This document shows positions 1 through 38,516 of a stretch of DNA of 64,000 nt, piece after piece. Under the pieces are notes generated by a model that was given only the letters and a program-made list of their open reading frames with translations, searched no databases and was not told the origin of the DNA. Position 1 is the first letter of the stretch. Every line of letters begins with the position of its first letter. The position numbers and the translations under genes are program-made. The DNA lies in assembly GCA_018267385.1 (NCBI GenBank), contig JAFDYN010000002.1, positions 130,548 to 194,547 of the forward strand. The letters are read 5' to 3'. This DNA comes from Bacteroidota bacterium (GTDB lineage: Bacteria; Bacteroidota; Bacteroidia; Chitinophagales; LD1).

Positions 1-1
1 C

Positions 2-1195
2 ACTAAAAAAAGCCTGCATGCTCTGTGGAAGCGCCATCACATCCCTACCATAGCGCTGCCGATACGCAATGATGTAGACATCTACGAGGTGATCTACAAA
101 GCCCCGTGGATAGACAGCTCTACCTGGATCAACTGCTCCGGCATAGCCTATGTACCTAAAACAAAAGGCAAGAAGGTACCGACATTTATGTTTGGCCATG
201 GTACGCAGATCAGCAAGGCGCGCGATATCACAGATGAGGACTCACAGCAGGGTGTCTGCCTGGGTTTTGCCGCTGATGGCTACCTGGCGCTATATCCCGA
301 CTACTATGGCATGGGCAAGGGCGACGGCCATCACCTCTACCAACACGCATGGAGTGAGGCGATGTCATACGTCTACATGCTCTACGCTGTGGAGGAGCTG
401 AAGAAACAACTGAACTATGAGACCAATGGACAACTTTTCCTGACGGGCTACTCTCAGGGAGGGCACTCTTCCTTTGCGGCACAGAAGTATATAGAGGCGC
501 TGCATGACCCACGCTTTAAGGTGACGGCTACCTCCCCAATGTCCGGCGCTTATGACATGACCGGTGAGCAGGCTAAGTACATGTTTGTGAAATACCCTAA
601 ACCTTTCTACCTGCCCTACCTGATCATCTCGTACCAGCTGGCATATCACATCTTCAACGATCCGAATGTCTACAATGCATTCCGCTCTCCGTATGATACG
701 CTGCTGCCGGGATTCTTTGGCGAGGTGCGGTCTAAAACCTATGACGACCTGGACAAGGTGATGCCCGCTGTACCGAGCGATGTGGTAAAGCCTGAGCTGG
801 TAGAGCGATTTAAAAATGACTCCAATTTCGTATTCCTGAAAAGGCTGCAGGAGAATAACCTGACCGACTGGGCCCCAGAGGCTCCTGTGCAACTCTGCTA
901 CTGCAAGGGTGACCGCGAGGTGAACTACAAGAACTCTGAAGTGGCCTACGAAAAAATATCTAAGGCCGGCAAGAAGGATATCAAGCTACTCAATCTATCA
1001 GACCATCTCGATCACAATACCTGCGCGGCCTTTGCAGTGCTCTCTACCAAGGCGTTTTTTGATCGCTTCAAAAAGAATGGTGAGAACCCGAAGCTGAAGG
1101 ACCTTACTCCATTCAAAAAGTGGGTGGCAAGCCTGGTGAAAAAGAAGATAGAGAAGCAGTACATGGCGGACGGCAAGGACCACGCGTATATGTAG
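2..1195 (+). CDS. alpha/beta hydrolase, secretory-lipase-like (5' end runs off the window)
   Basis: ORF 89..1195 begins at a GTG, but the same frame stays open back to nt 2, so the gene is cut by the window edge. It has a GYSQGG nucleophile-elbow motif. Confidence 0.6.
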   Translation, partial: TKKSLHALWKRHHIPTIALPIRNDVDIYEVIYKAPWIDSSTWINCSGIAYVPKTKGKKVPTFMFGHGTQISKARDITDEDSQQGVCLGFAADGYLALYPDYYGMGKGDGHHLYQHAWSEAMSYVYMLYAVEELKKQLNYETNGQLFLTGYSQGGHSSFAAQKYIEALHDPRFKVTATSPMSGAYDMTGEQAKYMFVKYPKPFYLPYLIISYQLAYHIFNDPNVYNAFRSPYDTLLPGFFGEVRSKTYDDLDKVMPAVPSDVVKPELVERFKNDSNFVFLKRLQENNLTDWAPEAPVQLCYCKGDREVNYKNSEVAYEKISKAGKKDIKLLNLSDHLDHNTCAAFAVLSTKAFFDRFKKNGENPKLKDLTPFKKWVASLVKKKIEKQYMADGKDHAYM

Positions 1196-1211
1196 GGCTA
1201 TCTGATCCGCA

Positions 1212-1925
1212 TCAGCATTTCAAAGTACCGATACCGTGCCATTCGTGTTCTACATTGGTCATTAAGAGTGCATGATCAAAATGCACTGAGCCTTTTGGGA
1301 AAACGACTTCATTTTCAAAGAAGCCAGAGGATACCTTTTTTACATTTAGTGGCGTGACTTTCCACTCATGAAGCATCAACTTCAGCCCATCAAATGAATT
1401 GCTGTCAGGCGAATAACCTGTACTTCCTTTTTCAAAGAAGTCCGAAGCATTTTTCAAGCTTTCGAAAATAGAGCCACTATTCAAATGTGAAGCAGTATCT
1501 GCCTCGATAGAAATAGTCGTTTTATCAGAACCTGTGACGTGAATATCATAATGGTCTGCTGTTTCCCTGGTATCAAACTGAGCAAGGTAGTGCCTGCCCG
1601 GAAACAGACGTCCACCAACCATTGCATTGAACCAAAGTGAAGTATCCCTACGGGGAATGTATACACCCTCATGCCTCACCCCTCCCTGATCCCACTCTAC
1701 GGCTATGCGGTGCGCAGCATTCTCTGAAGATATCCCGACAAAATCTGGTAATCCTTTTGGCTTAATGTTCTTGAGCCGGATCAGGCATACGCCAATAATG
1801 GCTTTCCCATTATAAGTCATTGGCCGAAAAGGCGCCGGTAAATAGCGACTAACCACATCTATATCTCCCACGTAATTGATCAGAATACGTCTGTCTATAT
1901 ATCCGTGGATAGTAGGAATCTTCAT
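1212..1925 (-). CDS. conserved hypothetical protein, DUF2071-like
   Basis: 237-aa ORF. Its N-terminal pattern (ILINY..D..VV..YLP.PF.P..YNGKAIIGVCLIRL) resembles the DUF2071 family as I remember it. Confidence 0.45.
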   Translation of the reverse strand: MKIPTIHGYIDRRILINYVGDIDVVSRYLPAPFRPMTYNGKAIIGVCLIRLKNIKPKGLPDFVGISSENAAHRIAVEWDQGGVRHEGVYIPRRDTSLWFNAMVGGRLFPGRHYLAQFDTRETADHYDIHVTGSDKTTISIEADTASHLNSGSIFESLKNASDFFEKGSTGYSPDSNSFDGLKLMLHEWKVTPLNVKKVSSGFFENEVVFPKGSVHFDHALLMTNVEHEWHGIGTLKC

Positions 1926-1930
1926 TTCGC

Positions 1931-4840
1931 TTAATTCTGATTGTCCTCCTCCAGCTTCTCCCTGAGGTAATAGCCGGTGTGCGATTCCTTGACCTTGACC
2001 AGTCCCTCAGGTGTGCCCTGATAGACCAGGTGGCCGCCCTCATCGCCGCCATCGGGGCCGAGATCTACTACCCAGTCTGCACATTTGATCACATCCATAT
2101 TGTGCTCTATGACCACCACGCTGTGACCTACCTCTATGAGCTGCTGGAAAGATGACATGAGCTTTTTGATATCATGAAAGTGGAGACCTGTAGTCGGCTC
2201 GTCAAAGATGAAGAGCAGAGGCTGTGTGGTTGAGCCCTTGGTGAGGAATGATGCAAGCTTGACACGCTGTGCCTCACCGCCAGAGAGCGTGGAGGATGAC
2301 TGGCCGAGCTTGACATAGCCGAGGCCTACATTGCGCAGTGGCGCGATGCGCTGTACGATGTCATTCTGCTCTGCAAAGAACTCTATAGCTTCATCTATGC
2401 TCAGCTCGAGGACGTCATAGACGTTCTTGTCTTTGTACATTACCTCCAGCACATCTTCCTTGAACTTACGACCATTGCAGACCTCACACTTCAGGTGAAC
2501 GTCTGCGAGGAACTGCATCTCTACGATCACTTCACCTTCGCCTTTGCAGTTCTCACAGCGGCCACCTTCGATATTGAATGAGAAAGTGCCTGCAGTGTAG
2601 CCACGAATCTTCGACAACTGCTGGCGGGCAAAGAGCTCACGGATAGCATCGTATGCCTTGACGTATGTGACAGGATTAGAGCGGGAGCTGCGGCCGAGTG
2701 GATTCTGATCTATCATCTCCACGCCGGTGATCTTCTTCATATCACCACGCAGCTCACGGTAGGAGCCCGGCTTCTCCCCTCCCCCATCAAACTGGCGCAT
2801 GAGAGCGGGATAAAGTATCTTCTTGATCAGTGTCGTCTTGCCAGAGCCGCTCACGCCGGTCACCACCACGAGCGAGTTGAGCGGGAACTTGGCATCTACA
2901 TCTTTCAGGTTGTGCTGTGTGGCACCGATGATGGAGATAGAGTTTGCTGTGCGGCGGCGGATGCGGTCGTAGTCTATTTTGAGGTCGCCCTTCAGGTATT
3001 TGCCGGTCAGGCTGTGTTTGTCTTTGGTGATGTCTTTGGCTGGGCCATTATAGACCACCTCACCGCCGTGTATACCGGCCTCGGGACCCATGTCTACTAT
3101 GTGGTCGCAGGCCTTCATGATGTCCTCATCGTGCTCTACTACGATCACAGTATTGCCGAGGTCACGTAGATTCTTCAGCACATCTATGAGGCGGGCTGTA
3201 TCGCGCTGATGGAGGCCTATGCTCGGCTCATCGAGGATATACATAGAGGAGGTGAGGTTGCTACCTATGGAGCGGGTCAGGTTGATACGCTGCGTCTCGC
3301 CGCCGCTGAGCGTATTGGAGAGGCGATTCAGCGTAAGGTAGCCCAGGCCTACATCCATCATGGTCTGCAGGCGGCTATTGACCTCCAGTAAAATTCGGTC
3401 CGCTACCTTCTTATCCTCCGTACCGAGCTTGATCTCTTTGAACCATGCATAGAGATCCTTGATAGGAGTCATGAGCAGCTCGGAGATATCTTTGCCGGCT
3501 ATTTTCACATACTGTGCGTCTTTACGGATGCGGGAGCCGTGGCACTCGGGGCAGGTCGTTTTGCCTCGATAGCGGGAGAGCATGACGCGGTATTGTATCT
3601 TGTAGCTTTTCTCCTCCAGGTACTGGAAGAAATAGGTAAGCCCCTGGAAGTATTCATTGCCCGTCCAGAGAAGTTTCTTCTCCTCGGCAGTAAGATCTTT
3701 GTAAGCGCGATGGATAGGGAAGTCAAAGTAGATGCCCTTCTTCAATATCGGCTCCAGCCACTCGCTCATCTTCTCGCCACGCCATGGGGCTATGGCACCT
3801 TCATAGAGTGACAGACCCTTATCCGGTACGATGAGATCCTCGTCGATGCCGATCACTGAGCCAAATCCCTCACAATTTTTGCAGGCACCGTAAGGGTTAT
3901 TGAAGTTGAATAGATTCTGCGACGGCAGCTCGAAGCTCATACCATCTGCTTCAAATTTATTGTTGAAGACTAGCTCTGCCCCCAAACCCCCAAAGGGGGC
4001 TTTAACAGCAGTTTTCTTAGTCGCCGTTAAGCCCTCCCCTTCGGGGAGGGTTTGGGGGGGGCTGAGTTCAGTCTCTACATAGCATTCATTTCCACCTTCA
4101 TTGAAGGCTGTAAGCACAGAGTCTGCCACGCGGGATTTCAGCTCTTCTTCCTGCTTCACGATGATACGGTCTACGAGGACTTTGACTGTTTTATCTTTTG
4201 ATTTAGCGATCTCTGGCCTGTCTATCAGGTCTTCTATCTTGGCCACGTTGCCGTCCCACTTCATACGGGTGAAACCCTTTTGCAGCAAGAGCTTCAGCTC
4301 TTCATTAAGTTTTGTTTTGACGGGTGCATCATAGTAGATGAAAGCTTTGGTGCCCTCGGTGAGAGAGAAGATATAGTCCACCACATCCACCACTTCATGC
4401 TTGGTCACGAGTTGGCCGGAGACGGGAGAATAGGTTTTACCCAGGCGTGCATAGAGCAGACGGAGATAGTCATAGATCTCCGTGAGAGAACCTACGGTCG
4501 AGCGGGTCGTGCGCGTAGATACTTTCTGCTCTATGGCGATGGCGGGGCAGAGACCTTTGATGTAGTCTACGTCTGGTTTGTCCATGCGGCTGAGGAACTG
4601 GCGCGCATAAGAGGTCAGGCTCTCTACATAGCGGCGCTGGCCCTCGGCGTAGAGCGTGTCTATGGATAGGGATGACTTGCCCGAGCCGGAAACACCGGTG
4701 AAAACGATGAACTGATTTTTGGGCAGCTCGAGGTCCACATTTTTGAGGTTGTGCACGCGGGCACCTTTGATGAGGATCTTTGTATCGGCTTGTTTCTTTA
4801 TAGGGAGGTCAGTACCTTTTTTAGTGCTGGTGGTAGGCAT
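1931..4840 (-). CDS. uvrA: excinuclease ABC subunit A
   Basis: 969 aa with two ABC ATPase modules (GVSGSGKSS and GVSGSGKTT Walker A motifs, LSGGE signatures, VIVVEHD/VVVIEHN) and UvrA-typical zinc-module context. Confidence 0.97.
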   Translation of the reverse strand: MPTTSTKKGTDLPIKKQADTKILIKGARVHNLKNVDLELPKNQFIVFTGVSGSGKSSLSIDTLYAEGQRRYVESLTSYARQFLSRMDKPDVDYIKGLCPAIAIEQKVSTRTTRSTVGSLTEIYDYLRLLYARLGKTYSPVSGQLVTKHEVVDVVDYIFSLTEGTKAFIYYDAPVKTKLNEELKLLLQKGFTRMKWDGNVAKIEDLIDRPEIAKSKDKTVKVLVDRIIVKQEEELKSRVADSVLTAFNEGGNECYVETELSPPQTLPEGEGLTATKKTAVKAPFGGLGAELVFNNKFEADGMSFELPSQNLFNFNNPYGACKNCEGFGSVIGIDEDLIVPDKGLSLYEGAIAPWRGEKMSEWLEPILKKGIYFDFPIHRAYKDLTAEEKKLLWTGNEYFQGLTYFFQYLEEKSYKIQYRVMLSRYRGKTTCPECHGSRIRKDAQYVKIAGKDISELLMTPIKDLYAWFKEIKLGTEDKKVADRILLEVNSRLQTMMDVGLGYLTLNRLSNTLSGGETQRINLTRSIGSNLTSSMYILDEPSIGLHQRDTARLIDVLKNLRDLGNTVIVVEHDEDIMKACDHIVDMGPEAGIHGGEVVYNGPAKDITKDKHSLTGKYLKGDLKIDYDRIRRRTANSISIIGATQHNLKDVDAKFPLNSLVVVTGVSGSGKTTLIKKILYPALMRQFDGGGEKPGSYRELRGDMKKITGVEMIDQNPLGRSSRSNPVTYVKAYDAIRELFARQQLSKIRGYTAGTFSFNIEGGRCENCKGEGEVIVEMQFLADVHLKCEVCNGRKFKEDVLEVMYKDKNVYDVLELSIDEAIEFFAEQNDIVQRIAPLRNVGLGYVKLGQSSSTLSGGEAQRVKLASFLTKGSTTQPLLFIFDEPTTGLHFHDIKKLMSSFQQLIEVGHSVVVIEHNMDVIKCADWVVDLGPDGGDEGGHLVYQGTPEGLVKVKESHTGYYLREKLEEDNQN
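3978..4061. repeat. 84-bp palindromic (REP/MITE-like) element inserted in frame in uvrA
   Basis: Terminal inverted repeats GCCCCCAAACCC and GGGTTTGGGGGGGGC, an inner imperfect palindrome, and a CCCTCCCC-TTCG-GGGGAGGG hairpin. It encodes about 28 extra low-complexity residues (LSPPQTLPEGEGLTATKKTAVKAPFGGLGA) where UvrA sequences I recall have only a short linker. Confidence 0.6.
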
Positions 4841-4958
4841 CAGAAATATTTATGCTTTTGCGCCCGGAGGCAAGCTGCGAAGATAAGGGTTTTGGGGCGC
4901 ATCTATATTACATGGGCGGAGTATAGGGGATGTGTTAAGAAGTTTTGGGGAGTTACCA

Positions 4959-4990
4959 GCCCCTGAATCCCCAAAGTGGACTTTAACAGC
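4959..4990. repeat. partial (left-arm) copy of the uvrA palindromic element, in the uvrA upstream intergenic region
   Basis: GCCCCTGAATCCCCAAAGTGGACTTTAACAGC compared with GCCCCCAAACCCCCAAAGGGGGCTTTAACAGC at 3978 matches at about 26 of 32 positions by eye. Confidence 0.45.
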
Positions 4991-5364
4991 CAGGGAACCG
5001 CAGAGACACAGAGCCGGAGCGGAAAATTGCTTTAAAAAGCTACATGACCTTTGTAAAGTTTAACCTGAAAAATAATTTTTACAATTATTTGGAAATACAG
5101 GAATACCTCCATAGCTTTGGATATATCCAAAACAAAAAGGCTATAGAGTAATCTTCTACTTTCAGTAATGCAGACCGTGAGGAATCAGTGAATAGAGTGT
5201 CTGCGCGCCTTGTTAATCAATTTTATAATCATATTTCGACAGTAGCAGTAGCTGCATTTTGCATTTGTCCTGATACACCGCTCCGGCTACTCCACTACTA
5301 AAAAACATCTGCCTATCGCTGCATAGACTCTACTTTTTAGATCACCACTTAAAACAGTACGTCT

Positions 5365-5961
5365 ATGCGCACACCACTCATGACAGACCAGGAACTGCTC
5401 AGGCAGTACCTCTCCGGCTCAGAAACGGCCTTCGAACGCCTTGTAGCCCGCCACAAAGACAAGGTCTATACCTCTATCTACATGATGGTGAAAGATGCCT
5501 ACCTGGCAGAGGATATCTTTCAGGAGACCTACATCAAGGTGATAGATACGCTGCGCTCCGGCAAGTATAACGACGAGGGCAAATTTATCCAGTGGGTGAT
5601 GCGTATCGCCTACAACCTGTGCATAGACTACTTCCGCAAAGTGAAGCGCGGGCCCGGTATCGTGACAAGCGAGGGTGACGATATCTTTAAGTACATGAAG
5701 TTTGACGAGGTGCCGCATGACGTCCATATGGATGTGATGAAGGGCGAAAACAAACTGAAAGACCTGATCGAGATGCTGCCTGAGGAGCAAAAAGAAGTGG
5801 TGATGCTCCGCCATTATTTCGACTTCAGCTTTAAGGAGATAGCAGAATATACCGGCGTGAGTATCAATACCTCTCTGGGCCGGATGCGCTACGCCCTGAT
5901 CAACCTGCGCAAGCTGATAGAAAAACACAATGTAGATGTGAGCCGCATCAACATAGGATAA
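5365..5961 (+). CDS. RNA polymerase sigma-70 family (ECF-type) sigma factor
   Basis: 198 aa with a region 2 (DIFQETYIKV) and a region 4 HTH (VVMLRHYFDFSFKEIAEYTGVSINTSLGRMRYA). Confidence 0.85.
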   Translation: MRTPLMTDQELLRQYLSGSETAFERLVARHKDKVYTSIYMMVKDAYLAEDIFQETYIKVIDTLRSGKYNDEGKFIQWVMRIAYNLCIDYFRKVKRGPGIVTSEGDDIFKYMKFDEVPHDVHMDVMKGENKLKDLIEMLPEEQKEVVMLRHYFDFSFKEIAEYTGVSINTSLGRMRYALINLRKLIEKHNVDVSRINIG

Positions 5962-5986
5962 GTCTTTGATTGTTCTCGATAAAAGC

Positions 5987-6022
5987 GCCGCTATCTGTGT
6001 ATCAGATGGCGGCTTTGTTTTG
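5987..6022 (+). terminator. rho-independent terminator after the sigma factor gene
   Basis: GCCGCTATCTG - 5-nt loop - CAGATGGCGGC stem, followed by TTTGTTTTG. Confidence 0.6.
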
Positions 6023-6219
6023 TCACTATCCTCTCTCATCACAGGGATCTGAAGAAGATCTTATAGGTGTAAAAAATTGGCTTTAAAAACAATTTTCGCT
6101 TAGCGATTACAAGCAGCTAATGACATATAAAACTGGCTATCAGATATCTGCTTTTTATATCAAAATAAAACAATAAGCCTATTGTTAAAAGCCTATCTTT
6201 AATACCAGAAACCCCTTTT

Positions 6220-9200
6220 ATGAAGAAAGTACCTATACTTCTCTGCGCCTTTTTATTGTCCTTCATCTCTTTCGCTCAGGCTCCCCCTCAGGGTATCAGC
6301 TACCAGGCCGTAGTGCGGAACGCATCAGGAGCGATAGTAGCCAATACACATGTGTCGATCCGCTTTACGATCCATGACCAAACTGCTACCGGTACGGTAG
6401 TCTTTCAGGAGACGCATGCGCAGAATACCAATCAATTTGGCCTTTTCAATGCCGTGATCGGCACCGGCGGTGGCAATCTGGGCACCGTAGCCTGGGGTAG
6501 CGGTCCTAAGTTTCTGCAGGTAGAGGTAGATATAAACGGCGGCGGTAGCTATACAGATATGGGTACCAATCAGCTGATGAGCGTGCCCTATGCCCTGTAT
6601 GCAGGCAATGGCGGCGGTGGCGCTACGGGTGCTACAGGGCCGCGGGGAGCCACAGGTGCCACTGGCGGTGTAGGCAATACCGGGCCCACCGGGGCTACTG
6701 GTGCAGGCGGTGGTGCTACAGGACCCACCGGCAATGATGGTGCTACAGGAGCACAAGGGCCTACCGGTGCGACAGGAAGTAATGGTGCGACAGGTGCCCA
6801 AGGCAATACGGGACCTATGGGTCCGACTGGTAACGATGGACCAGCCGGACCGACCGGTGGAGACGGCATGACAGGTCCGCAAGGAAATACAGGAGCTGAT
6901 GGAGTGACCGGACCTACCGGTGCTGATGGTATCACAGGTCCACAAGGAAATACTGGGACTGATGGCTCGACAGGACCAACAGGACCGACAGGACCTACTG
7001 GATCTGGCGGAGGCGCAACTGGACCAACGGGACTGACTGGTCCTACAGGTCCATCTGGAGTAGGAGGCGGTGCAACAGGGCCCACTGGTCCATCTGGTAA
7101 TGATGGAGCAACGGGGCCGACCGGCCCATCCGGAATAGATGGTGTTACCGGCCCAACAGGTGCGGGAATCACAGGACCAACTGGTCCTGCTGGTATTGAC
7201 GGCGCCACTGGTCCTACTGGTTCCGGTGGTGGCGCCACAGGACCAACCGGCCCTACCGGACCTACAGGCGTGGGAGGTGGTGCCACTGGTCCGACAGGCC
7301 CTTCGGGCAATGATGGAGTGACGGGGCCGACAGGTGCAAATGGAACGAATGGTGCTACTGGTCCATCAGGTGCTGATGGAGTCACTGGCCCTACAGGAGC
7401 AAATGGCACTAACGGTAATACAGGACCTACCGGCCCTTCGGGTGCTGATGGAGCTGCGGGGAGCACTGGTGCACAGGGACCAACCGGACCTACTGGTACG
7501 GGCGGAGGCGCTACCGGACCGACAGGACCGACAGGACCATCTGGCAATGATGGCGCGGCAGGTGCTACCGGCGTGCAAGGTGTAACAGGACCGACTGGAG
7601 CTAACGGACTCAACGGAGCTACGGGGCCATCCGGTGCAGATGGCGCAGCAGGTCCTACCGGGCCCACAGGCGCTACAGGTGTGGGAGGAGGTGCCACAGG
7701 ACCGACTGGACCATCTGGCAATGATGGCGCAACTGGTGCTTCCGGCGCGCAAGGTATCACAGGACCAACTGGTGCTAATGGACTCAACGGAGCTACCGGT
7801 CCATCTGGTGCAGACGGCGCTACAGGACCTACCGGACCCACAGGCGCTACCGGCGTAGGTGGGGGTGCCACGGGGCCTACTGGTCCGTCAGGTGTAGATG
7901 GTGTCGCGGGCTCTACTGGTGCGCCGGGTATAACAGGACCTACAGGTGCTAATGGAATAAATGGAGCTACAGGGCCATCGGGTATAGATGGCGCTGCGGG
8001 ACCTACCGGACCCACAGGCGCTACCGGCGTAGGTGGGGGTGCCACGGGGCCGACAGGACCCACGGGTAGCAATGGCAACAATGGCGCCACAGGACCATCT
8101 GGTGCTGACGGTAGTGCCGGACCTACAGGCGCTCAGGGTGCTACGGGTGCACAAGGAACGACAGGAGCACAAGGGCCGGCAGGAAATGATGGCGCTACAG
8201 GACCACAAGGCAATACAGGCTCAGCAGGACCTACAGGCTCGACTGGTGCGCAAGGACCTACCGGAGCACAAGGACCGGCAGGAAGTGATGGTGCTACAGG
8301 ACTGCAAGGCACTACAGGCTCAGCAGGCCCCACGGGCCCGGCAGGTGCACAAGGACCTACAGGTAACGCAGGACCTACCGGAGCACAAGGACCAGCAGGA
8401 AATGATGGCGCTACAGGACCGCAAGGCACTACAGGCTTAACAGGGCCCACAGGTCCGGCAGGGGCACAAGGACCTACCGGTAATGATGGCCCTACCGGCC
8501 CTCAGGGAGCCACGGGGCCTAGCGGCTCACTAGATGCGTGGAGCCTGACCGGCAATTCCGGTACGACTCCGGGCACTAACTTCATCGGGACGATAGACTC
8601 TACTGATTTTGTAGTGAAGACTGATAACATCGAAGCGATGCGCGTACGTGCTAACAGGTATGTCGGTATTGGTACGACCACTCCTGCATTCCCGCTGGAG
8701 GTAGCTACTCCATCGCAATTTGCGGCTGCTATACATATCATCCCGGCTACTACTGGCAGGCGTGCGTCTATGCAGATAGGAGACTGGCAGGCGCTGGAAG
8801 ACGTATCGGGCAATGGTGTACGAAACTTTGCGATTTACCAAAACGCTACAGGTAAACAACGCTTTGATATAGATACTAATGGCTATATCGGTATCGGTAC
8901 GCTGAAGCCCGGCTCACCGGTGGTCATAGCCAGCCCATTGCTCAATTCAGGTGTTTTCAAAGTAGGAACACTTAGCACGGATCCTGATGAAACCTGGTGG
9001 ATGGGCTTCAATTCATCTGTGAATACACTACTGGCACCGAGCAGCGCAGATGGTACAGATCGTGCACGGATAGGCGTCAATCTGGACGGAACGGGCCGTG
9101 GCCGCTTGTTCTTTACCACAGGCAATGCAGGTACGCAGGTAGAGCGCATGCGCATAGATGAGACCGGTCTGGTGGGCATCGGCACCTCCACTCCTACTAC

Positions 9201-11820
9201 AAAACTCGATGTAGAATCAACTACCTCTCCTGCCTTCAAGCTCGTAGATGGTACGCAGGGCACAGGCAAGGTACTGACCAGTGATGCAAGTGGCAATGCG
9301 ACATGGCAGACACCTGCAGCATCGGGCGGTGGCAGCTCAGACAGCACGATCTATAAAGCTGATGGTACTCTGACCGGCAACCGCACCGTGGTCATGGCGG
9401 ATAAGAACCTGACCTTTACTGCTACTACGGGTAAGTTCAGCTATACACCTACTGTGATCGGTAGTGTAGCCATGGGTAGGTCTGTGACATCCGGTGGAGA
9501 CATGAGTTTCGCGACGGGAGTTTTTACTACGTCCTCAGGCAGCCAATCTTTTGCGGGGGGCTCACAGACGATCGCATCTGGCGGACAAAGCTTTGCCATG
9601 GGTAATACTGACACTGCCTCGGGCAGTCAGAGTGCTGTATTCGGGCAATACAGTAAGGCGCTGGGCAGCAATAGTTTCGTGGCAGGTCAAAACTCTGTGG
9701 CTATAGGCAGTAGCGCCGCTGCCTTTGGCTGGGCCAATAATGCGGGTAATAACCAGACCTTTGCGCAAGGGCAGAATACAACAGCTAGTGGCGTAGATGC
9801 GGCATCTTTTGGCTATCAGACCTTGGCATCCGGCTATGCTAGTATGGCTGTGAATGCCGGCAACTCTGCCACACAGAATTATACCTTCGCTGCAGGCTAT
9901 CAGAATATAGCCTCTCAAAATGCAGCAGCAGCTTTTGGTCAAAGCGATACAGCCTCAGGTATGCAGAGCGCTGTATTTGGCCAGTATAATAAAGCCTCAG
10001 GATTCCAGAGCTTTGTATCAGGATCTAGCTCTACGGCCATAGGTACCAATGCTGCCTCATTCGGCTTGAGCAATGCCTCGTCAAACAATCAGACCTTTAC
10101 ACAAGGGCAAGGTAACACTGCAAGTGCCAGCAATGCCGCCGCGTTTGGGGTGCAGACCACAGCCTCCGGACAGGCCAGTATGGCTATCAACTCAGGTACC
10201 GCCGCCACTACCAATTACGCATTTGCCGCAGGCAGCCAGACCATCGCATCGGGTATAGCCAGCGCGGCATTTGGCCAGAGTGATACCGCCATGGGTAACC
10301 AGAGTGCAGCATTCGGCTCCAACAGCAAAGTGCAGGGCAGCAATAGTTTTGTGGCGGGGCAGTCTGTGACTGCTATCGGCAGCAATGCGGCGGCGTTTGG
10401 ATCAGGCAGTAGTGCGGGCAATAGCTCTACTTTTGCCGCTGGCCAGAATGCATCTGCCAGTGGCTTTGGGGCCGTAGCGATGGGTACACAGACCAGTGCC
10501 AGCGGCTCCAGCAGTATGGCTGTAAACGCCAGTACCACAGCCAGCCAGAGCTATGCCTTTGCTGCAGGCAACCAAACAGTAGCATCCGGCTCGGCTAGTG
10601 CTGCCTTTGGCCAGAGCGACACTGCTCAGGGTTTCAATAGTGCATCATTTGGCAACTACAACAGGGCTGCAGGAAGCCAGAGCTTTGTGGCGGGCGGCTA
10701 CTCAGTGGTGACCGGCAGCAATGCTGCCAGCTTTGGAGGCAACAACAATGTGTCCGGCAATCTGGCCTTTGCTGCTGGTAGCAACCATACCGTGAGTAGT
10801 AGCGGAGCAGCAGCATTTGGCAGTTATAATGTCGTATCGGGCAATGCAAGTTTTGCAACAGGCCAGTACAATACGGCATCCGGCTTTCAGAGTTTTGCCA
10901 CCGGCACAAACAATAAAGCTACCAACGGGCAATCATTTGTGGCCAATGAAAACAATGTGGCAAAGGGTTCAGACGCTACTGCGTTTGGCATCAATGACTC
11001 CGCTAACGGGGACCGGAGCTTTGTGATCGGCACAAACAACAAAGGCACTAACGCACAGTCCTTCGCCGCAGGAGAGTTTAACGTTACCAAAGGCCAGTCT
11101 GCCGCCGCATTTGGTGCTGGCGATTCTGCTAATGGCAATTTCTCATTTGTGTCTGGGATAGGCAGCACTGCTGCATCATACGGTGAGACCGTGATAGGCG
11201 CTTACGCCACCCAGTACACTCCGGCCAGCACTACTGCATGGCAGTCCAGCGACAGGCTATTTACGATAGGCAATGGCCAATCTTATGCCCGGGCAGATGC
11301 CATGGTAGTGATGAAGAATGGCAATACAGGGATAGGTACCAACGCCCCTACTGCCTTACTCTCGGTAAATGGATCTGCCAATAATGCTACAGGGGCGTGG
11401 GGAGTTTTCTCCGACAGCAGGATCAAGACAGTGGAAGGCGAATTCACCGATGGCCTCAATGTGATCAACCGCCTGCGACCGGTCACATTCCGCTACAATG
11501 CTAATGCACCGTATCAGGCAGATGGCGCGCAGATAGGTGTGATAGCGCAGGAGCTGGAGCAGGTAGCTCCCTATATGGTATCTCAGCGGGACTACAAAAA
11601 CATCTCCGGCCTGCGCCAAGTCAATAATCAGGCTTACACCTTTATCCTCATCAATGCCGTGAAGGAACAACAGGCCGAGATAGAACGCCTCAATGCACGA
11701 AATAAAATGCTGGAAGACCAGATGAAAGCCAGTGACAATAAGCATGACCAAGTGATCCGGACCATGAAAGCGCAGATAGATGCCATCAACGAACGCCTGA
11801 ATATAACTACGGTGAAATAG
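6220..11820 (+). CDS. giant secreted surface protein: collagen-like triple-helix repeats + YadA-head-like adhesin repeats + C-terminal tail-fibre intramolecular chaperone (peptidase S74-like) domain
   Basis: 1866 aa with an N-terminal signal peptide ([21 protein letters not shown]) and about 630 aa of Gly-X-Y repeats. A long array of SFA.G..N.ASG-type repeats follows. The C terminus has SDSRIK...VTFRY...[15 protein letters not shown] and then a coiled coil. Confidence 0.9.
6610..8526 (+). repeat. collagen-like Gly-X-Y coding repeat region
   Basis: Continuous GXT/GXY triplets interrupted by GGG/VGGG kinks. It contains 174-bp (58-aa) units starting at 7678, 7852 and 8026. 7825..7877 and 7999..8051 are an identical 53-bp pair. 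Confidence 0.9.
9601..10944 (+). repeat. four tandem 336-bp (112-aa) super-repeats of adhesin-head-like motifs
   Basis: The G(N/Q)(T/S)DTA.G landmark recurs at 9601, 9937, 10273 and 10609, exactly 336 bp apart. The wider degenerate repeat zone is about 9450..11205. Confidence 0.8.
11406..11700 (+). other. peptidase S74-like intramolecular chaperone auto-processing domain (domain of the 6220..11820 CDS)
   Basis: The motif [12 protein letters not shown]...LRPVTFRYN...[16 protein letters not shown] matches the tail-fibre/endosialidase C-terminal chaperone family. Confidence 0.7.
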
Positions 11821-11864: not shown

Positions 11865-12272
11865 ATGAAATACAAGATCGGTACCAAGGAAAAACCAATG
11901 GCGCTCAAAACTCCACCGCACACCTCTGAGTACACTATGCATGCAGATGAGAAGGACGGTAAAGAGATCCTTGTGTGTACAGTAGGTAAAACAGTACTCC
12001 ACTATGATGCCCGCGCTCTCGATGACCTGCATGCCATGCTGAAAAAACATGGCGACTGGATGGAGCTGGGCAGTGCAGATGAGCAGAAGCCTGCCAAAGA
12101 AGGGACGGTAGAGGCATGGGGGCGGTCAGAGCATAACCCTGCAGGTGGCTGGTATGGGCTGAAGAAAGGACTGCGCGGCCGTTTCGGAATGTATATACCA
12201 CCACTGATGGAGGCGCTGGGCCTGGCAGAGGTGACTCACGACCCTAAGGGTAACAGGATGCGGGCGAAATAA
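11865..12272 (+). CDS. conserved small hypothetical protein
   Basis: 135-aa ORF with good coding composition. The GGWYGLKKGLRGRFGMYIPPL motif looks like a widespread uncharacterised family. Confidence 0.6.
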   Translation: MKYKIGTKEKPMALKTPPHTSEYTMHADEKDGKEILVCTVGKTVLHYDARALDDLHAMLKKHGDWMELGSADEQKPAKEGTVEAWGRSEHNPAGGWYGLKKGLRGRFGMYIPPLMEALGLAEVTHDPKGNRMRAK

Positions 12273-12323: not shown

Positions 12324-12347
12324 AGCCGCTCCATGAAGCGGCTATTT
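12324..12347 (+). terminator. putative terminator hairpin
   Basis: AGCCGCT - 6-nt loop - AGCGGCT, followed by ATTTACATT (a weak T tract). Confidence 0.45.
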
Positions 12348-17560: not shown

Positions 17561-18793
17561 ATGAAAAAAGAAGCCGAACAGTCGTGCTCTTTCTGTGGGA
17601 GGAAAAAGCGTGAAACACAGATCCTGATCTCAGGCATAGAGGGTCAGATATGCGACCAGTGCGTGGCACAGGCGCAGCAGATCATAGATGAGGAGCTCTT
17701 CCAGAAGGCAAAGAAGTTCCAGTACTCCCTACCTAATGGGGTCAAGCCAAAAGATATCGCGGCCTTTCTCGATCAGTATGTGATCGGCCAGGATGAGGCT
17801 AAGAAATACCTCTCCGTAGCCGTGTACAACCACTACAAGAGGCTCAATCAGCGCAAGGATGACGATGTAGAGATAGAGAAATCTAACATCATCATGGCCG
17901 GTCAGACCGGTACGGGTAAAACCCTCCTGGCGCGTACTATTGCGAAGTTCCTGAATGTGCCGTTTGCTATCGTAGATGCGACGGTATTTACCGAGGCGGG
18001 CTATGTGGGTGAGGACGTGGAGAGCATTCTCTCGCGCCTGCTGCAGGTGTGCAACTATGACGTAAAAGCGGCTGAGCATGGTATCATCTACATAGATGAA
18101 ATAGACAAGATCAGCCGCAAGAGCGACAATCCATCTATCACACGTGACGTATCTGGCGAGGGCGTACAGCAGGCCATGCTGAAGCTACTCGAAGGTACTG
18201 AAGTACTCGTGCCACCACAAGGTGGCCGCAAGCACCCTGAAGCAAAGATGGTAAAGGTAGATACGTCAAACATCCTCTTCATCTGCGGTGGTGCCTTCGA
18301 AGGGATCGACAAGGTGATAGCCCAGCGGATGAACCAGGCTAAGATCGGATTTAAAAAGGGCAAGGATAAGGACAAGGTGGATAATGAGAATTACCTCAAG
18401 TATATCAGCCCGTCTGACCTGCGCACCTTTGGCCTGATACCGGAGCTGATAGGCCGTCTGCCGGTGCTGGTACACCTCGATCCGCTGGACAAGGAGACGC
18501 TGCTCTCCATCCTCCTGGAGCCTAAGAATGCGCTGGTAAAGCAATACAAGAAGATCTTCAAATCAGAAGGCATAGAGCTGACCTTCACAGACGAGGCTAT
18601 GGACTACATCGTGTCAAAGGCCCTGGAATTCCAGCTCGGTGCGCGTGGGCTACGCTCTATCTGCGAGGCTATCATGACCGACGCCATGTTTGAGATGCCA
18701 TCTATCAAGGGTGAGAAAGAATTTGAGATCACGCTAGAGTACGCAGAGGATAAGATCAATAAGACGAATATCAACAGGCTGAAAGTAGCGTAA
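17561..18793 (+). CDS. clpX: ATP-dependent Clp protease ATP-binding subunit
   Basis: N-terminal C4 zinc finger (CSFCGR...CDQC), Walker [18 protein letters not shown] and GARGLRS. Confidence 0.97.
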
Positions 18794-23673: not shown

Positions 23674-25578
23674 TTATTTCACAGCGAGCCTGATGGCTGC
23701 GTGTGCTGTTTCTGTAGTGACATTGATGATATAGACGCCTGCGCTCATGTCTGCCGTTTCAAACTTGAAAGCATACTTGCCCGCAGCTACATTCTTCTGA
23801 TCCATGATGGTCTTTACCTGATTGCCCATCATATCATAGATAGTGATATTCAGGTCAGAGTTATTGGCCAGTGCATAGCCTATCACAGCTTCATTCTGTG
23901 CAGGATTGGGAGCTACCTGGAGGTAGAGTTTCTCCTCACTGTAGGTAGGTATACCTGTAGAGGTAGAGCGGCTGTCGTAGTCCGTGTTGTTTGGATCCCA
24001 GTTAGTCCAGCCGGCAGTCCACTTGTCGCTATTGGCATTCTGCGCACCGATATGGTTTTCCGGCGTGAAGAAGGAGCTGGACAGCTTGCTGCTGGTCAGG
24101 TTTGGCACCAGTGTAGGGGCATTGTAGTTGATAAAGAGAGCCGTAGTATCTGTATTGATCGGTTTGGTAGGATCGTATGGATATACCTTGCCGTTTGAGA
24201 ATGGATCCAGTGTACCACCTGCTGTCACATAAGAAGGCAGGGCGGTAGAGTTGTATGATATAGGTGAAGTGCTGGTAGGGGTAAAATCAGGATTGGTAAG
24301 GTTAAATGGATTCTGGATGCGAAGGCCATTTTGCTCAGTGGCATAGATCTTATCCTTATTGGCAGGATCCTTGATAAAAGCCCAAGGGCCGGACCATGGA
24401 CCAAATGAGAACACACCGCTACCCGTGGTATCAGGGCTAGGCAGGTTAGTGGCTGTGAGAGAGCGGGCACCATTGTATACCAGTACTACTTCTTTGCCGC
24501 CACCTACAGCATTCAGTTGGATACCAGCTATAGCGTTGTTCTTAAACTCAGCCGCACCGCTCACGAGATTGGCTATAGTAGATCCGAAAGCTGTAGAGTC
24601 AGACTCATCTATCAGGAGACCTGCAGGATAGCCTACCACTACGCTATTGAGGAGGCTCATAGAGCTACCACGGCGCATATGCACACCTGCTACGAACTGA
24701 GGATCATAGGCTGTAGAGCTTGGTTGGACCAGCGGACCTACTACAGTATAATTGGTAAATACCGGGTGTGTAGGCATTGTATTGCCGCCGAGGCCAGTCA
24801 CAGTACCATTCTGATAGCTATCAGACTCCCAGGCTTTAGAGCCGGAGTTATCTGCTGCATATGGGTCGCGGAGACCGATGCCATATTGGTTGAGACCGGC
24901 ATAGCCGTTATCATTGTCAAAATCATCATCCCATCCAGCAAAGGCCACGAGATTTTTTGTATTTACAGTACCGCCAAACCACTCATAAGAATCATCTCCT
25001 GAGTAAGATACTTGTATGTGATCTATTTGGGTCGCATCACCCACAGAGCAAAATGTGAGGCCGTTGATCTCATTGTTTGGAGAGAAGGCGATACCGGGAA
25101 ACTCGATACGCACATAGTGCATTTCACCTGAGTTGTCATGAGGATCCGTACCACCATAGAGTGAGCGTGGACCACCTTCTACCTGTGCTGTACCTGACGA
25201 CCAGTTGTTAGGAGATTTGCCGCAGAGGATCACACCACCCCAGTCACCATAAGAACGATTGCCCAGAGCCTCATTTGAAGTGAAAACGATAGGCTGAGAC
25301 GCCGTACCCATGGCCATGAGCTTGGCACCACGCTCCACTATCAGAGAGCCTTTGGTTTGCTTATCGCCGCGGATCACTGTGCCCGGATCTATGGTCAGAG
25401 TCGTACCATTGGTCACATATACATATCCCTTCAGAAGGTATTGACGGTCGTTAGTCCAATGCGTATCTGTAGAGATGCTATCCTGTACCGTGACCTTGGT
25501 AAATGATTGCGCAGATACCGCGCCACAGAAACCCAGTGCCATCAGACAGGTCGTGAGTCTTTGATAAAAGTTTTTCAT
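23674..25578 (-). CDS. secreted protein of unknown function with a T9SS C-terminal sorting domain
   Basis: The signal peptide begins at the internal Met (MKNFYQRLTTCLMALGFCGAVSAQ). The C terminus is LQVAPNPAQNEAVI...ITIYDMMGNQV...GVYIINV....IRLAVK, which is T9SS CTD-like. Confidence 0.75.
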   Translation of the reverse strand: MKNFYQRLTTCLMALGFCGAVSAQSFTKVTVQDSISTDTHWTNDRQYLLKGYVYVTNGTTLTIDPGTVIRGDKQTKGSLIVERGAKLMAMGTASQPIVFTSNEALGNRSYGDWGGVILCGKSPNNWSSGTAQVEGGPRSLYGGTDPHDNSGEMHYVRIEFPGIAFSPNNEINGLTFCSVGDATQIDHIQVSYSGDDSYEWFGGTVNTKNLVAFAGWDDDFDNDNGYAGLNQYGIGLRDPYAADNSGSKAWESDSYQNGTVTGLGGNTMPTHPVFTNYTVVGPLVQPSSTAYDPQFVAGVHMRRGSSMSLLNSVVVGYPAGLLIDESDSTAFGSTIANLVSGAAEFKNNAIAGIQLNAVGGGKEVVLVYNGARSLTATNLPSPDTTGSGVFSFGPWSGPWAFIKDPANKDKIYATEQNGLRIQNPFNLTNPDFTPTSTSPISYNSTALPSYVTAGGTLDPFSNGKVYPYDPTKPINTDTTALFINYNAPTLVPNLTSSKLSSSFFTPENHIGAQNANSDKWTAGWTNWDPNNTDYDSRSTSTGIPTYSEEKLYLQVAPNPAQNEAVIGYALANNSDLNITIYDMMGNQVKTIMDQKNVAAGKYAFKFETADMSAGVYIINVTTETAHAAIRLAVK

Positions 25579-25683
25579 TGTGCTTATTTTTTGTTGGCGC
25601 AAAAGTCCATTGTAGATGTTACCAAATATTTATGTGCCGGTTAAGGTTAGGCTACTCTGGTCCCACTTATGCACACTCAGGCC

Positions 25684-37202: not shown

Positions 37203-38516
37203 ATGAAAAAACTCTTTACCCTCTGCCTCATAGCCATGAGCCTGGCTGCTGCGGCACAATCTCAGCACCGCATACTCTGTGGCAATGAATACCTACTGGA
37301 TCTCACCGAGCAGCGCCACCCGGGCTACAAGGCTGCCGTGCAGCAGGCTTTTGACCGGGCCAAAAATCATAGCGCCAGCCGGGCTACCAATGCGGTGACC
37401 TATACCATACCTATCATCTTTCACGTAGTATATGGTGCGGCGGCGGAGAACCTGGACGATAGTGTCCTGCAGTCTGAGATAGCAGTACTGAATGCTGACT
37501 ATAGCCGCACCAATGCCGATGCGGTGAATACGATCGCTTACTTTGACAGTGTGGGGGCAGATACACATATACAGTTTACGCTTCACAGCACGGTGCGCGT
37601 ACAGACCAGCAATCAGTTTACCCTGGACCTATTCACCGGCCTGCCGGACTCGCTGATCAAGCTGAGCGCAGCCGGTGGTGATGATGCCGTAGATCCTGAC
37701 CACTACCTCAATATATGGATCGTAAACCTGCAGCCGTCACTTTTCGGCCAGCTGCTGGGCTACTCCTATCCGCCGGATGGCCTGCCAAACTGGCCTGCAG
37801 GACAGTCATCTGCCGCACCTCAGCAGGGCTACGATGGTGTGGTGCTCGACTACCGTACGGTAGGTGCCAATAATCCCAATCCCATCAACTTTAGTGGTAT
37901 GAACCTCGTGATCCGTGGCCGCACAGGTACCCATGAGATAGGGCACTACCTTGGCCTCCGCCACATCTGGGGCGATGGAGCTACTTTCGGTACCAACGAC
38001 TGCCAGCAAAGTGATGGTATAGATGATACGCCGTTTGCTAATACGCAATCTAACTTTGACTGCGATACAACCCGCAATACCTGCACCCAGGCAGAGGCCT
38101 ACTACGGTGCCGATGCTCCTGACATGGTGCAGAACTATATGGACTACTCCTCTGAAGAGTGCATGAACCTCTTCACCAAAGGCCAGGCTGCCCTCATGCA
38201 GAACACGCTGGAGGTGAACCGTCCGAACCTGGCGACCAAGTCCTACCCGCTCGGTGTGTCGCAGGCTGTAGCCAACACAGTAGCTATCTATCCTAACCCG
38301 ACTACTGGCATAGTATACATCCGCTACGCGCAAAACTCAGATGCAGCTACTACAGCTACTGTCTATAATATGCTCGGCGAAACAATGGCGGTAACCCAAT
38401 CAACAGCTGTCGGCGCTATAAAACTGGATATGAGTGCCCTCTCGGGTGGTGTCTATACCATAGACCTGCTGAAAGATGGTCAGCATACAACAAAGAAAGT
38501 GGTGCTGAATAAATAA
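37203..38516 (+). CDS. M43 (pappalysin/cytophagalysin-like) zinc metalloprotease with a T9SS C-terminal domain
   Basis: HEIGHYLGLRHIWGD zinc site, a signal peptide, and the C-terminal VAIYPNPTTGIVYI...GVYTIDLL....KKVVLNK. Confidence 0.8.
   Translation: MKKLFTLCLIAMSLAAAAQSQHRILCGNEYLLDLTEQRHPGYKAAVQQAFDRAKNHSASRATNAVTYTIPIIFHVVYGAAAENLDDSVLQSEIAVLNADYSRTNADAVNTIAYFDSVGADTHIQFTLHSTVRVQTSNQFTLDLFTGLPDSLIKLSAAGGDDAVDPDHYLNIWIVNLQPSLFGQLLGYSYPPDGLPNWPAGQSSAAPQQGYDGVVLDYRTVGANNPNPINFSGMNLVIRGRTGTHEIGHYLGLRHIWGDGATFGTNDCQQSDGIDDTPFANTQSNFDCDTTRNTCTQAEAYYGADAPDMVQNYMDYSSEECMNLFTKGQAALMQNTLEVNRPNLATKSYPLGVSQAVANTVAIYPNPTTGIVYIRYAQNSDAATTATVYNMLGETMAVTQSTAVGAIKLDMSALSGGVYTIDLLKDGQHTTKKVVLNK

Follow-up and report, generated by a model that had tools for sequence, protein, structure and literature searches.

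A probable MAT-type surface fibre with a collagen stalk and a Peptidase_S74 chaperone in a Chitinophagales genome

The 64,000-nucleotide stretch analysed here (the window), which comes from a Bacteroidota bacterium of the order Chitinophagales, carries a 5.6-kb open reading frame (ORF) whose product joins collagen-like, adhesin-like and phage-like parts in one chain. Is this gene a remnant of a phage, a singular hybrid of phage and cellular parts, or a regular component of the cell? A first-pass annotation, made from the DNA letters alone, had read the product as an unusual phage-derived chimera built of four parts: a signal peptide with a conserved N-terminal module, a collagen-like region, repeats resembling adhesin heads, and a Peptidase_S74 (S74) chaperone. 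This four-part reading was borne out. What we find, however, is no singular phage-cell chimera. Apart from its great length the protein is unexceptional, and it belongs to a large branch, found in Bacteroidota, of the superfamily of mosaic adhesive trimer (MAT) fibres, which Caulton et al. (2024, PMC10769870) were the first to describe, in the predator Bdellovibrio. We consider it probable, with appreciable doubt, that the gene encodes a Bacteroidota MAT-type cell-surface fibre that is exported, trimerised and cleaved as proposed below. An exact-sequence look-up of the 1866-residue protein matched no record. The gene and the parts of its product, in order from the N-terminus, are as follows.

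6220..11820, + strand: fibre ORF, ATG start, 1866 residues, uninterrupted
6220..6276, + strand: Sec signal peptide for signal peptidase I, residues 1-19, read from the sequence and followed by QAPPQ
6277..6609, + strand: conserved N-terminal beta-sandwich module (N-module), residues 20-130, by profile match and AlphaFold2 (AF2) model
6610..8532, + strand: collagen-like stalk, residues 131-771, by Gly-X-Y count and Pfam Collagen
8533..9465, + strand: MAT-type beta-helix segment, residues 772-1082, by PDB sequence matches and motifs
9466..11187, + strand: 41 in-register 14-residue repeats, residues 1083-1656, by register and autocorrelation
11188..11409, + strand: neck and last beta-helix turn with a fourth capping loop, by alignment
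11410..11820, + strand: Peptidase_S74 chaperone, residues 1731-1866, and stop codon, by Pfam, AF2 and Foldseek

The evidence for membership in the MAT superfamily begins at the N-terminus. Signal peptidase I is predicted to cut after the residues SFA and thereby to expose Gln20, which is invariant among 27 and among 69 aligned relatives; a Gln directly after the signal peptide fits the Q-rule of Bacteroidetes (PMC5837995). The N-module that follows is conserved, with 118 matches at E-values (E) down to 2e-56, and the copy of Pfam that we used holds no model for it. The N-terminal 135 residues, signal peptide included, matched the NCBIfam profile NF053851 (Bdello_MAT_N) at E 4.3e-13, or 2.7e-11 when the signal peptide was removed, and the same profile was matched by 10 of 10 mature N-domains tested. 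The AF2 model of the N-module is a beta-sandwich of 6-7 strands with a predicted local distance difference test score (pLDDT) of 86.9. Fold searches in PDB and BFVD found no specific match for it, only generic Ig-like sandwiches, a result like the one published for the MAT N-domain (PMC10769870). We presume that the N-module is the cell-proximal, anchoring end of the fibre, as seems likely.

How common is this N-terminus? An exhaustive profile search found the N-module in 28,042 representatives of clusters defined at 50% identity, 21,326 of them at E up to 1e-10, and its position was nearly always residues ~20-130. Scanning one genome per species gave at least 594 confirmed loci, and the best 80 of these were analysed. 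They belong to Chitinophagales, Flavobacteriales, Saprospiraceae and Bacteroidales, with the exception of a metagenome-assembled genome (MAG) labelled Bifidobacteriaceae (L028). By comparison, 2.9 million viral contigs yielded one locus. What had looked like an unusual chimera is instead a member of a very large cellular family. For the sole viral match (L081:8001-8318, on the 88-kb contig IMGVR_UViG_2721755344_000003, 45% identity) two origins are conceivable, host DNA beside a prophage or a copy truly carried by a phage.

The remainder of the chain varies from member to member. Among 69 full-length N-module proteins, the most frequent domains were Collagen (38), S74 (12) and Fib_succ_major (4), and rarer ones were YadA_head, C1q and Lcl_C (2 each) and a tail Collar domain (1). 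Some members come close to the architecture seen here: P0208 (1198 residues) has the N-module, 20 Gly-X-Y triplets, YadA_head and S74, L014 (1770 residues) has collagen and S74, and L017 (1805 residues) has collagen and YadA_head. One of the closest relatives, encoded at L003:9950-15070 in MAG UBA1941, has an N-domain 86% identical to that of the window and 258 Gly-X-Y triplets in 1707 residues, and it ends in a different, unannotated domain instead of S74. Going by the two sequences, this looks like tip exchange between close relatives. A fixed N-domain, a stalk that would form trimers and a swappable tip appear to be exactly the MAT design. Members of the Fibrobacterota-Chlorobiota-Bacteroidota (FCB) group with collagen-like and S74-like tips were already present in Supplementary Table S3 of the MAT study (PMC10769870); the Kordia and Dokdonia proteins of that table were not among the best 120 matches of our flavobacterial-member profile search. 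Paralogues are often several per genome and often in tandem, with up to four in a row in L032, L036 and L046, and the window holds one N-module copy in its 64 kb. Public records name family members 'tail fiber domain-containing protein' or 'trimeric autotransporter adhesin'. In one protein (P0240, 916 residues) the N-domain profile matched six stretches, i.e. tandem copies of the module. Tip switching by a shufflon or an inversion at the fibre gene was considered and rejected, as no inverted repeats of note are present there.

The stalk of the window's protein opens with 210 Gly-X-Y triplets (630 residues), arranged in 11 runs with one-residue interruptions (GGGATG) and matched by Pfam Collagen at E 1.4e-67. 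Thr, Ala and Pro are abundant in it, and its coding DNA consists of diverged tandem repeats of 174, 99 and 117 bp with ~80-87% identity. The models for SclB, Lcl and SclA all stayed under their cut-offs (239 of 325, 225 of 500 and 170 of 400 bits, respectively), and their matches were confined to the Gly-X-Y region. Because the G+C content rises in this part of the gene (to 0.61-0.63), long spurious ORFs open on the opposite strand between 6325 and 9350, up to 500 residues in length (e.g. 6588..8090, - strand). Most likely they arise from the G+C-rich repetition of Gly-X-Y codons and are not genes.

Between the collagen and the 14-residue repeats lies a segment that the first-pass annotation had missed. 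Residues 772-1082 are homologous to the Bdellovibrio MAT fibres, matching the PDB sequences of Bd2133 (8ond, E 5.9e-13) and 8oml (9e-11), and the fibre body also has sequence homology to the solved MAT structures 8on4, 8ojn and 8ol4. The segment contains three copies of a capping-loop motif, xGIGTxxPxxxL, near residues 827, 902 and 997, which with the copy in the neck makes four in the protein; the corresponding loop, VG(G/N)xxxPxxxL, was defined for MAT fibres and MyRF (PMC10769870).

The 41 repeats of 14 residues that come next run consecutively without an insertion or deletion and show a super-period of 112 residues. They match solved heads of trimeric autotransporters in PDB, namely BpaC (7o23, E 3e-14), YadA (1p9h, 4e-5), CbpF and UspA1, and are labelled LbR_Ice_bind, another left-handed beta-roll, by Pfam (49.4 bits), and Pfam YadA_head gave no match at E up to 0.1. 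The earlier description of these repeats as YadA-head-like thus agrees with the PDB heads and with the repeat count, but not with the Pfam family of that name. We read the repeats as a probable left-handed beta-roll of the YadA/BpaC head type. A phmmer search with the repeat region against the family proteins returned nothing, though L017 and P0208 score on YadA_head; we suspect the composition filter, and periodicity was used in its place. The neck, which aligns with the stalk of MyRF and with the MAT fibres 8on4 and 8oml, ends at Phe1730, the predicted mature C-terminus.

The C-terminal domain had been called an S74 chaperone with SDSRIK as its catalytic motif, and the profile search agrees: Pfam Peptidase_S74 (PF13884) covers residues 1731-1787 along profile positions 1-57 of 58, with 44.7 bits against a cut-off of 22. 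The motif is intact, SDSRIK at residues 1731-1736 corresponding to SDxxxK, and the predicted catalytic pair is Ser1731 (11410-11412) and Lys1736 (11425-11427). Across 21 aligned relatives S1731, D1732, R1734 and K1736 do not vary, and S1731 and K1736 are likewise constant across 40. In an AF2 monomer model of the C-terminal 266 residues, pLDDT exceeds 90 over residues ~1735-1866, and Foldseek matched the modelled S74 part to the ICA domain of MyRF (7dc3, E 6e-6, prob 1.0) and next to the endosialidase/phage chaperones 3gw6 and 3gud. The coiled coil expected after S74 is present in the model as one long helix of ~60 residues (about 1803-1865) at the end of the chain.

These C-terminal features raise the question of whether the gene is merely the leftover tail fibre of a decayed prophage or tailocin, without a role in the cell. 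S74 is typical of phage fibres, and the C-terminal 266 residues match PHROG tail-fibre families at E down to 1.9e-21 (phrog_1980). A phage derivation would fit only these parts, S74 and the beta-helix; the N-domain is cellular and so is the family as a whole, with at least 594 genome loci set against one viral contig. Virion proteins have no Sec signal peptide, whereas this protein does, and its 5.6-kb ORF is intact. Nor do the surroundings resemble a prophage. The genes upstream encode a hydrolase, a DUF2071 protein, UvrA and a sigma factor of the extracytoplasmic function (ECF) type, and those downstream a DUF6855 protein, PKD, DUF1573 and CarboxypepD_reg proteins, ClpP, ClpX and further housekeeping functions. 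No phage structural gene was found in these flanks by Pfam or by a PHROG search with nine flanking ORFs, which returned a generic sigma-factor match and one family of unknown function only, and no larger prophage was seen in the scanned flanks. Positions 1-7800 of the window are moreover syntenic with the closely related MAG 'Bacteroidetes bacterium SZAS-59' (L001), at 79-89% nucleotide identity in the flanks; in that MAG the contig breaks off within the collagen repeats of the fibre gene. The chromosomal, non-prophage setting given in the first-pass annotation is therefore upheld, and we regard a phage leftover as very improbable.

How might such a protein reach and serve the cell surface? 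We infer its trimerisation, direction of folding, cleavage, outer-membrane crossing, surface display and adhesion as follows; for S74 the scheme is proposed because of the analogy with phage fibres, MyRF and Bd3182 of Bdellovibrio, a MAT protein that self-cleaves at the serine of SDxxxK (PMC10769870). Export would be through Sec, and removal of the signal peptide by signal peptidase I would leave Gln20 at the N-terminus of the chain. The S74 domains would then bring three chains into register at their C-termini, from where folding would proceed toward the N-terminus through the terminal beta-helix, the 41-turn beta-roll and the MAT-type beta-helix, and lastly through the 640-residue collagen. 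A registration device at the C-terminus would make structural sense for a collagen so long and repetitive. Once the trimer has formed, Ser1731 and Lys1736 would cleave the chain, releasing the 136-residue chaperone, exposing the distal tip and leaving residues 20-1730 as the mature chain. Finally, the N-terminal beta-sandwich would hold the fibre at the surface, while the beta-roll and the tip would bind a ligand on another cell or surface. Taking ~0.29 nm for each collagen residue and ~0.5 nm for each turn of the beta-roll, as in standard geometry, we estimate a fibre length of ~200 nm.

Several observations weigh against the proposal of a MAT-type surface fibre. At the N-terminus, the Bdello_MAT_N score of 49.4 bits is below the curated subfamily cut-off of 60, the alignment spans only positions 2-79 of the 162 in the profile, and the family was absent at E up to 0.1 when the whole 1866-residue protein was scanned against NCBIfam; the comparison with the Bdellovibrio N-domain was, in addition, made through this profile and not by direct sequence alignment. 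Given a score under the cut-off and an alignment limited to the first half of the profile, we read the N-module as a probable divergent homologue of the first half of the Bdellovibrio MAT N-domain, and not as a Bdellovibrio-type orthologue. In the C-terminal monomer model only the S74 part is confident, the beta-helix and beta-roll part having pLDDT below 50. Charged residues are few in the collagen region and bacteria have no hydroxyproline, leaving the stability of the predicted triple helix unproven. As for crossing the outer membrane, no sorting domain of the type IX secretion system (T9SS) was found in the protein, whether Por_Secre_tail/TIGR04183, type B or type C (Pfam and NCBIfam), just as the first-pass annotation had said; YadA_anchor, the YadA-type beta-barrel, likewise had no match in Pfam or NCBIfam, the C-terminus being S74, and LPXTG is absent. 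None of these searches points to a route across the outer membrane, and the window has no copy of a small partner gene with a T9SS domain that accompanies 30% of family genes. Separately, the Bdello_MAT_N match surfaces only when the N-terminal 135 residues are scanned alone, and annotation pipelines that work on whole proteins may miss it likewise.

With no membrane or cell-wall anchor recognisable by Pfam or NCBIfam, one could suppose that the protein is not an anchored adhesin but a free collagen-like fibre, released to the medium, matrix or vesicles as a scaffold of biofilms or aggregates. The collagen-like protein Lcl of Legionella, whose general layout is the same, is peripheral and extracellular (PMC11162425), and two members of the present family carry Lcl_C tips. 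The strict conservation of an N-domain right after the signal peptide in ~28,000 clusters argues instead for a common docking function, a function that was also proposed for the MAT N-domain, and MAT fibres have been located on the cell surface and on a vesicle (PMC10769870). A released scaffold is thus an improbable explanation in our view.

Another way to account for the missing sorting domain is that the fibre is exported and anchored by T9SS through a separate small adaptor that binds its N-domain. With the S74 chaperone or a tip domain already filling the C-terminus of the fibre, the sorting signal would have to come in trans, and for the window's fibre the adaptor would be encoded elsewhere in the genome. 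The organism does appear to use T9SS, as it encodes predicted T9SS cargo proteins, of which the window holds one along with two further candidates.

23674-25602, - strand: T9SS cargo with Por_Secre_tail (Pfam E 5e-10)
37203-38516, + strand: putative T9SS sorting-domain ORF, by tblastn match of sorting domains only
53072-55822, - strand: putative T9SS sorting-domain ORF, by tblastn match of sorting domains only

When all ORFs of the 80 loci were clustered, one recurrent neighbour was a small ORF of 150-190 residues, all copies of which form a single family. It has a signal peptide, a conserved stretch of ~55 residues (VIxSSGG...LSxTxGE...LTQGFQQP) and then a T9SS sorting domain of type A, which matches Por_Secre_tail/TIGR04183 at E 1e-9 to 1e-11. 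A copy is present in 34 of the 80 loci, and in 29 of the 98 N-module genes with enough upstream sequence it ends no more than 200 nt upstream on the same strand, typically leaving a gap of 5-45 nt. Every fibre paralogue of L010 and L058 comes with a copy of its own, and culturable species such as Flavobacterium soyae (L052) and Aquimarina litoralis (L054) also have a pair of this ORF and a fibre gene. Examples are listed here.

L071:9370-9939: small T9SS-domain ORF
L013:9334-9894: small T9SS-domain ORF
L046:7078-7590: small T9SS-domain ORF
L052:9399-9920: small T9SS-domain ORF
L058:7783-8349 and 9351-9899: small T9SS-domain ORFs
L010:15673-16191 and 18088-18606: small T9SS-domain ORFs

Against such an adaptor, 70% of family genes have no copy beside them, and none was found in the 64-kb window (best E 0.84) or beside the syntenic gene of L001. 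Adjacency alone does not prove binding. Piggy-back export through T9SS has no known precedent and none appeared in the literature searched, where we also found nothing linking the endosialidase-chaperone (S74) domain with T9SS. We therefore hold a T9SS adaptor to be possible but doubtful, and keep to the reading of a MAT-type fibre held at the surface by its N-domain.

The immediate neighbours of the fibre gene were considered as possible regulators or accessories.

5365..5961, + strand: ECF-type sigma-70 factor (Pfam Sigma70_r2, r4_2, ECF)
5987..6013, + strand: terminator-like hairpin between the sigma and fibre genes, 11-bp stem with 7 G-C pairs, then a T-run
11865..12272, + strand: DUF6855 gene (Pfam E 1.3e-70), 45 nt downstream of the fibre gene

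As first annotated, the ECF sigma gene stands alone and a hairpin separates it from the fibre gene. The hairpin is plausible as a terminator by its position and stem length, while the number of terminator-like sites in the scanned region (6, against 5.8 expected from shuffles) is not significant by itself. The suggested link between sigma factor and fibre did not hold: the sigma gene adjoins a family gene in L001 only, and in 0 of the 79 other loci, and regulation of the fibre by it was accordingly rejected. Downstream, the next terminator-like hairpin comes only at 12324-12343, past the DUF6855 gene, so the fibre gene and DUF6855 may be co-transcribed. An accessory role for DUF6855 was rejected as well, given that its protein has no signal peptide and that all 80 related loci lack the gene. 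Since neither gene adjoins family genes in the 79 other loci, we treat both as incidental and as probably unrelated to the fibre.

The MAT family has so far been studied only in Bdellovibrio, in which it mediates the recognition of prey, and the present results place the same design very commonly in Bacteroidota. There it is built on long collagen stalks, which would make these proteins natural collagen triple helices registered by a removable C-terminal chaperone. This combination of collagen and S74 is of interest for the engineering of recombinant collagen and for adhesion in soil and aquatic Bacteroidota, and the recurrent small T9SS-domain gene makes the question of export and anchoring directly testable.

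How does the fibre compare with known systems? Its nearest counterpart is the S74 subgroup of Bdellovibrio MAT fibres (Bd3182), with which it shares a signal peptide directly before a beta-rich N-domain, a beta-helix with the VG(G/N)xxxPxxxL capping loop and a C-terminal S74 domain with SDxxxK; in both cases the proteins form a multigene family with swapped tips. The differences are of host and of proportion. The gene here belongs to Bacteroidota rather than Bdellovibrionota, with no indication of a predatory lifestyle. Its N-domain has ~110 residues, of which the first ~67 align to the Bdellovibrio profile, compared with ~130-160 in Bdellovibrio; its stalk is mainly the 640-residue collagen and the 41-turn YadA-type beta-roll, whereas that of Bdellovibrio MAT is a beta-helix; and the length estimated from geometry is ~200 nm, against ~55 nm for Bd3182. 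Many Bacteroidota members have an adjacent small T9SS-domain gene, unlike the fibre of the window.

The S74 domain is the same, by Pfam score, Ser/Lys pair and predicted fold, as the chaperones of phage (K1F endosialidase 3GW6, GA-1 3GUD, T5 pb1) and the MyRF ICA domain (7DC3), and in MyRF, as here, a capping loop of the triple-beta-helix type precedes it. In those systems the domain sits on a virion protein or on a membrane transcription factor of the endoplasmic reticulum (MyRF), whereas here it is found on a Sec-exported cellular protein. With the heads of YadA, BpaC and UspA1 the fibre shares 14-residue left-handed beta-roll repeats that are similar at the level of sequence. It differs from these trimeric autotransporters in lacking a YadA-type anchor and Pfam YadA_head, and because it has no such C-terminal anchor and no YadA_head match it cannot be a type Vc autotransporter. 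Finally, Scl1/2 of Streptococcus, Lcl of Legionella and BclA of Bacillus also have a globular N-domain and a trimerising C-terminal domain with a long Gly-X-Y stalk in between, BclA has Thr-rich triplets like those of the fibre, and C1q or Lcl_C tips occur in members of the family. The fibre has no LPXTG, and S74, a chaperone predicted to be cleaved off, serves as its trimerising domain.

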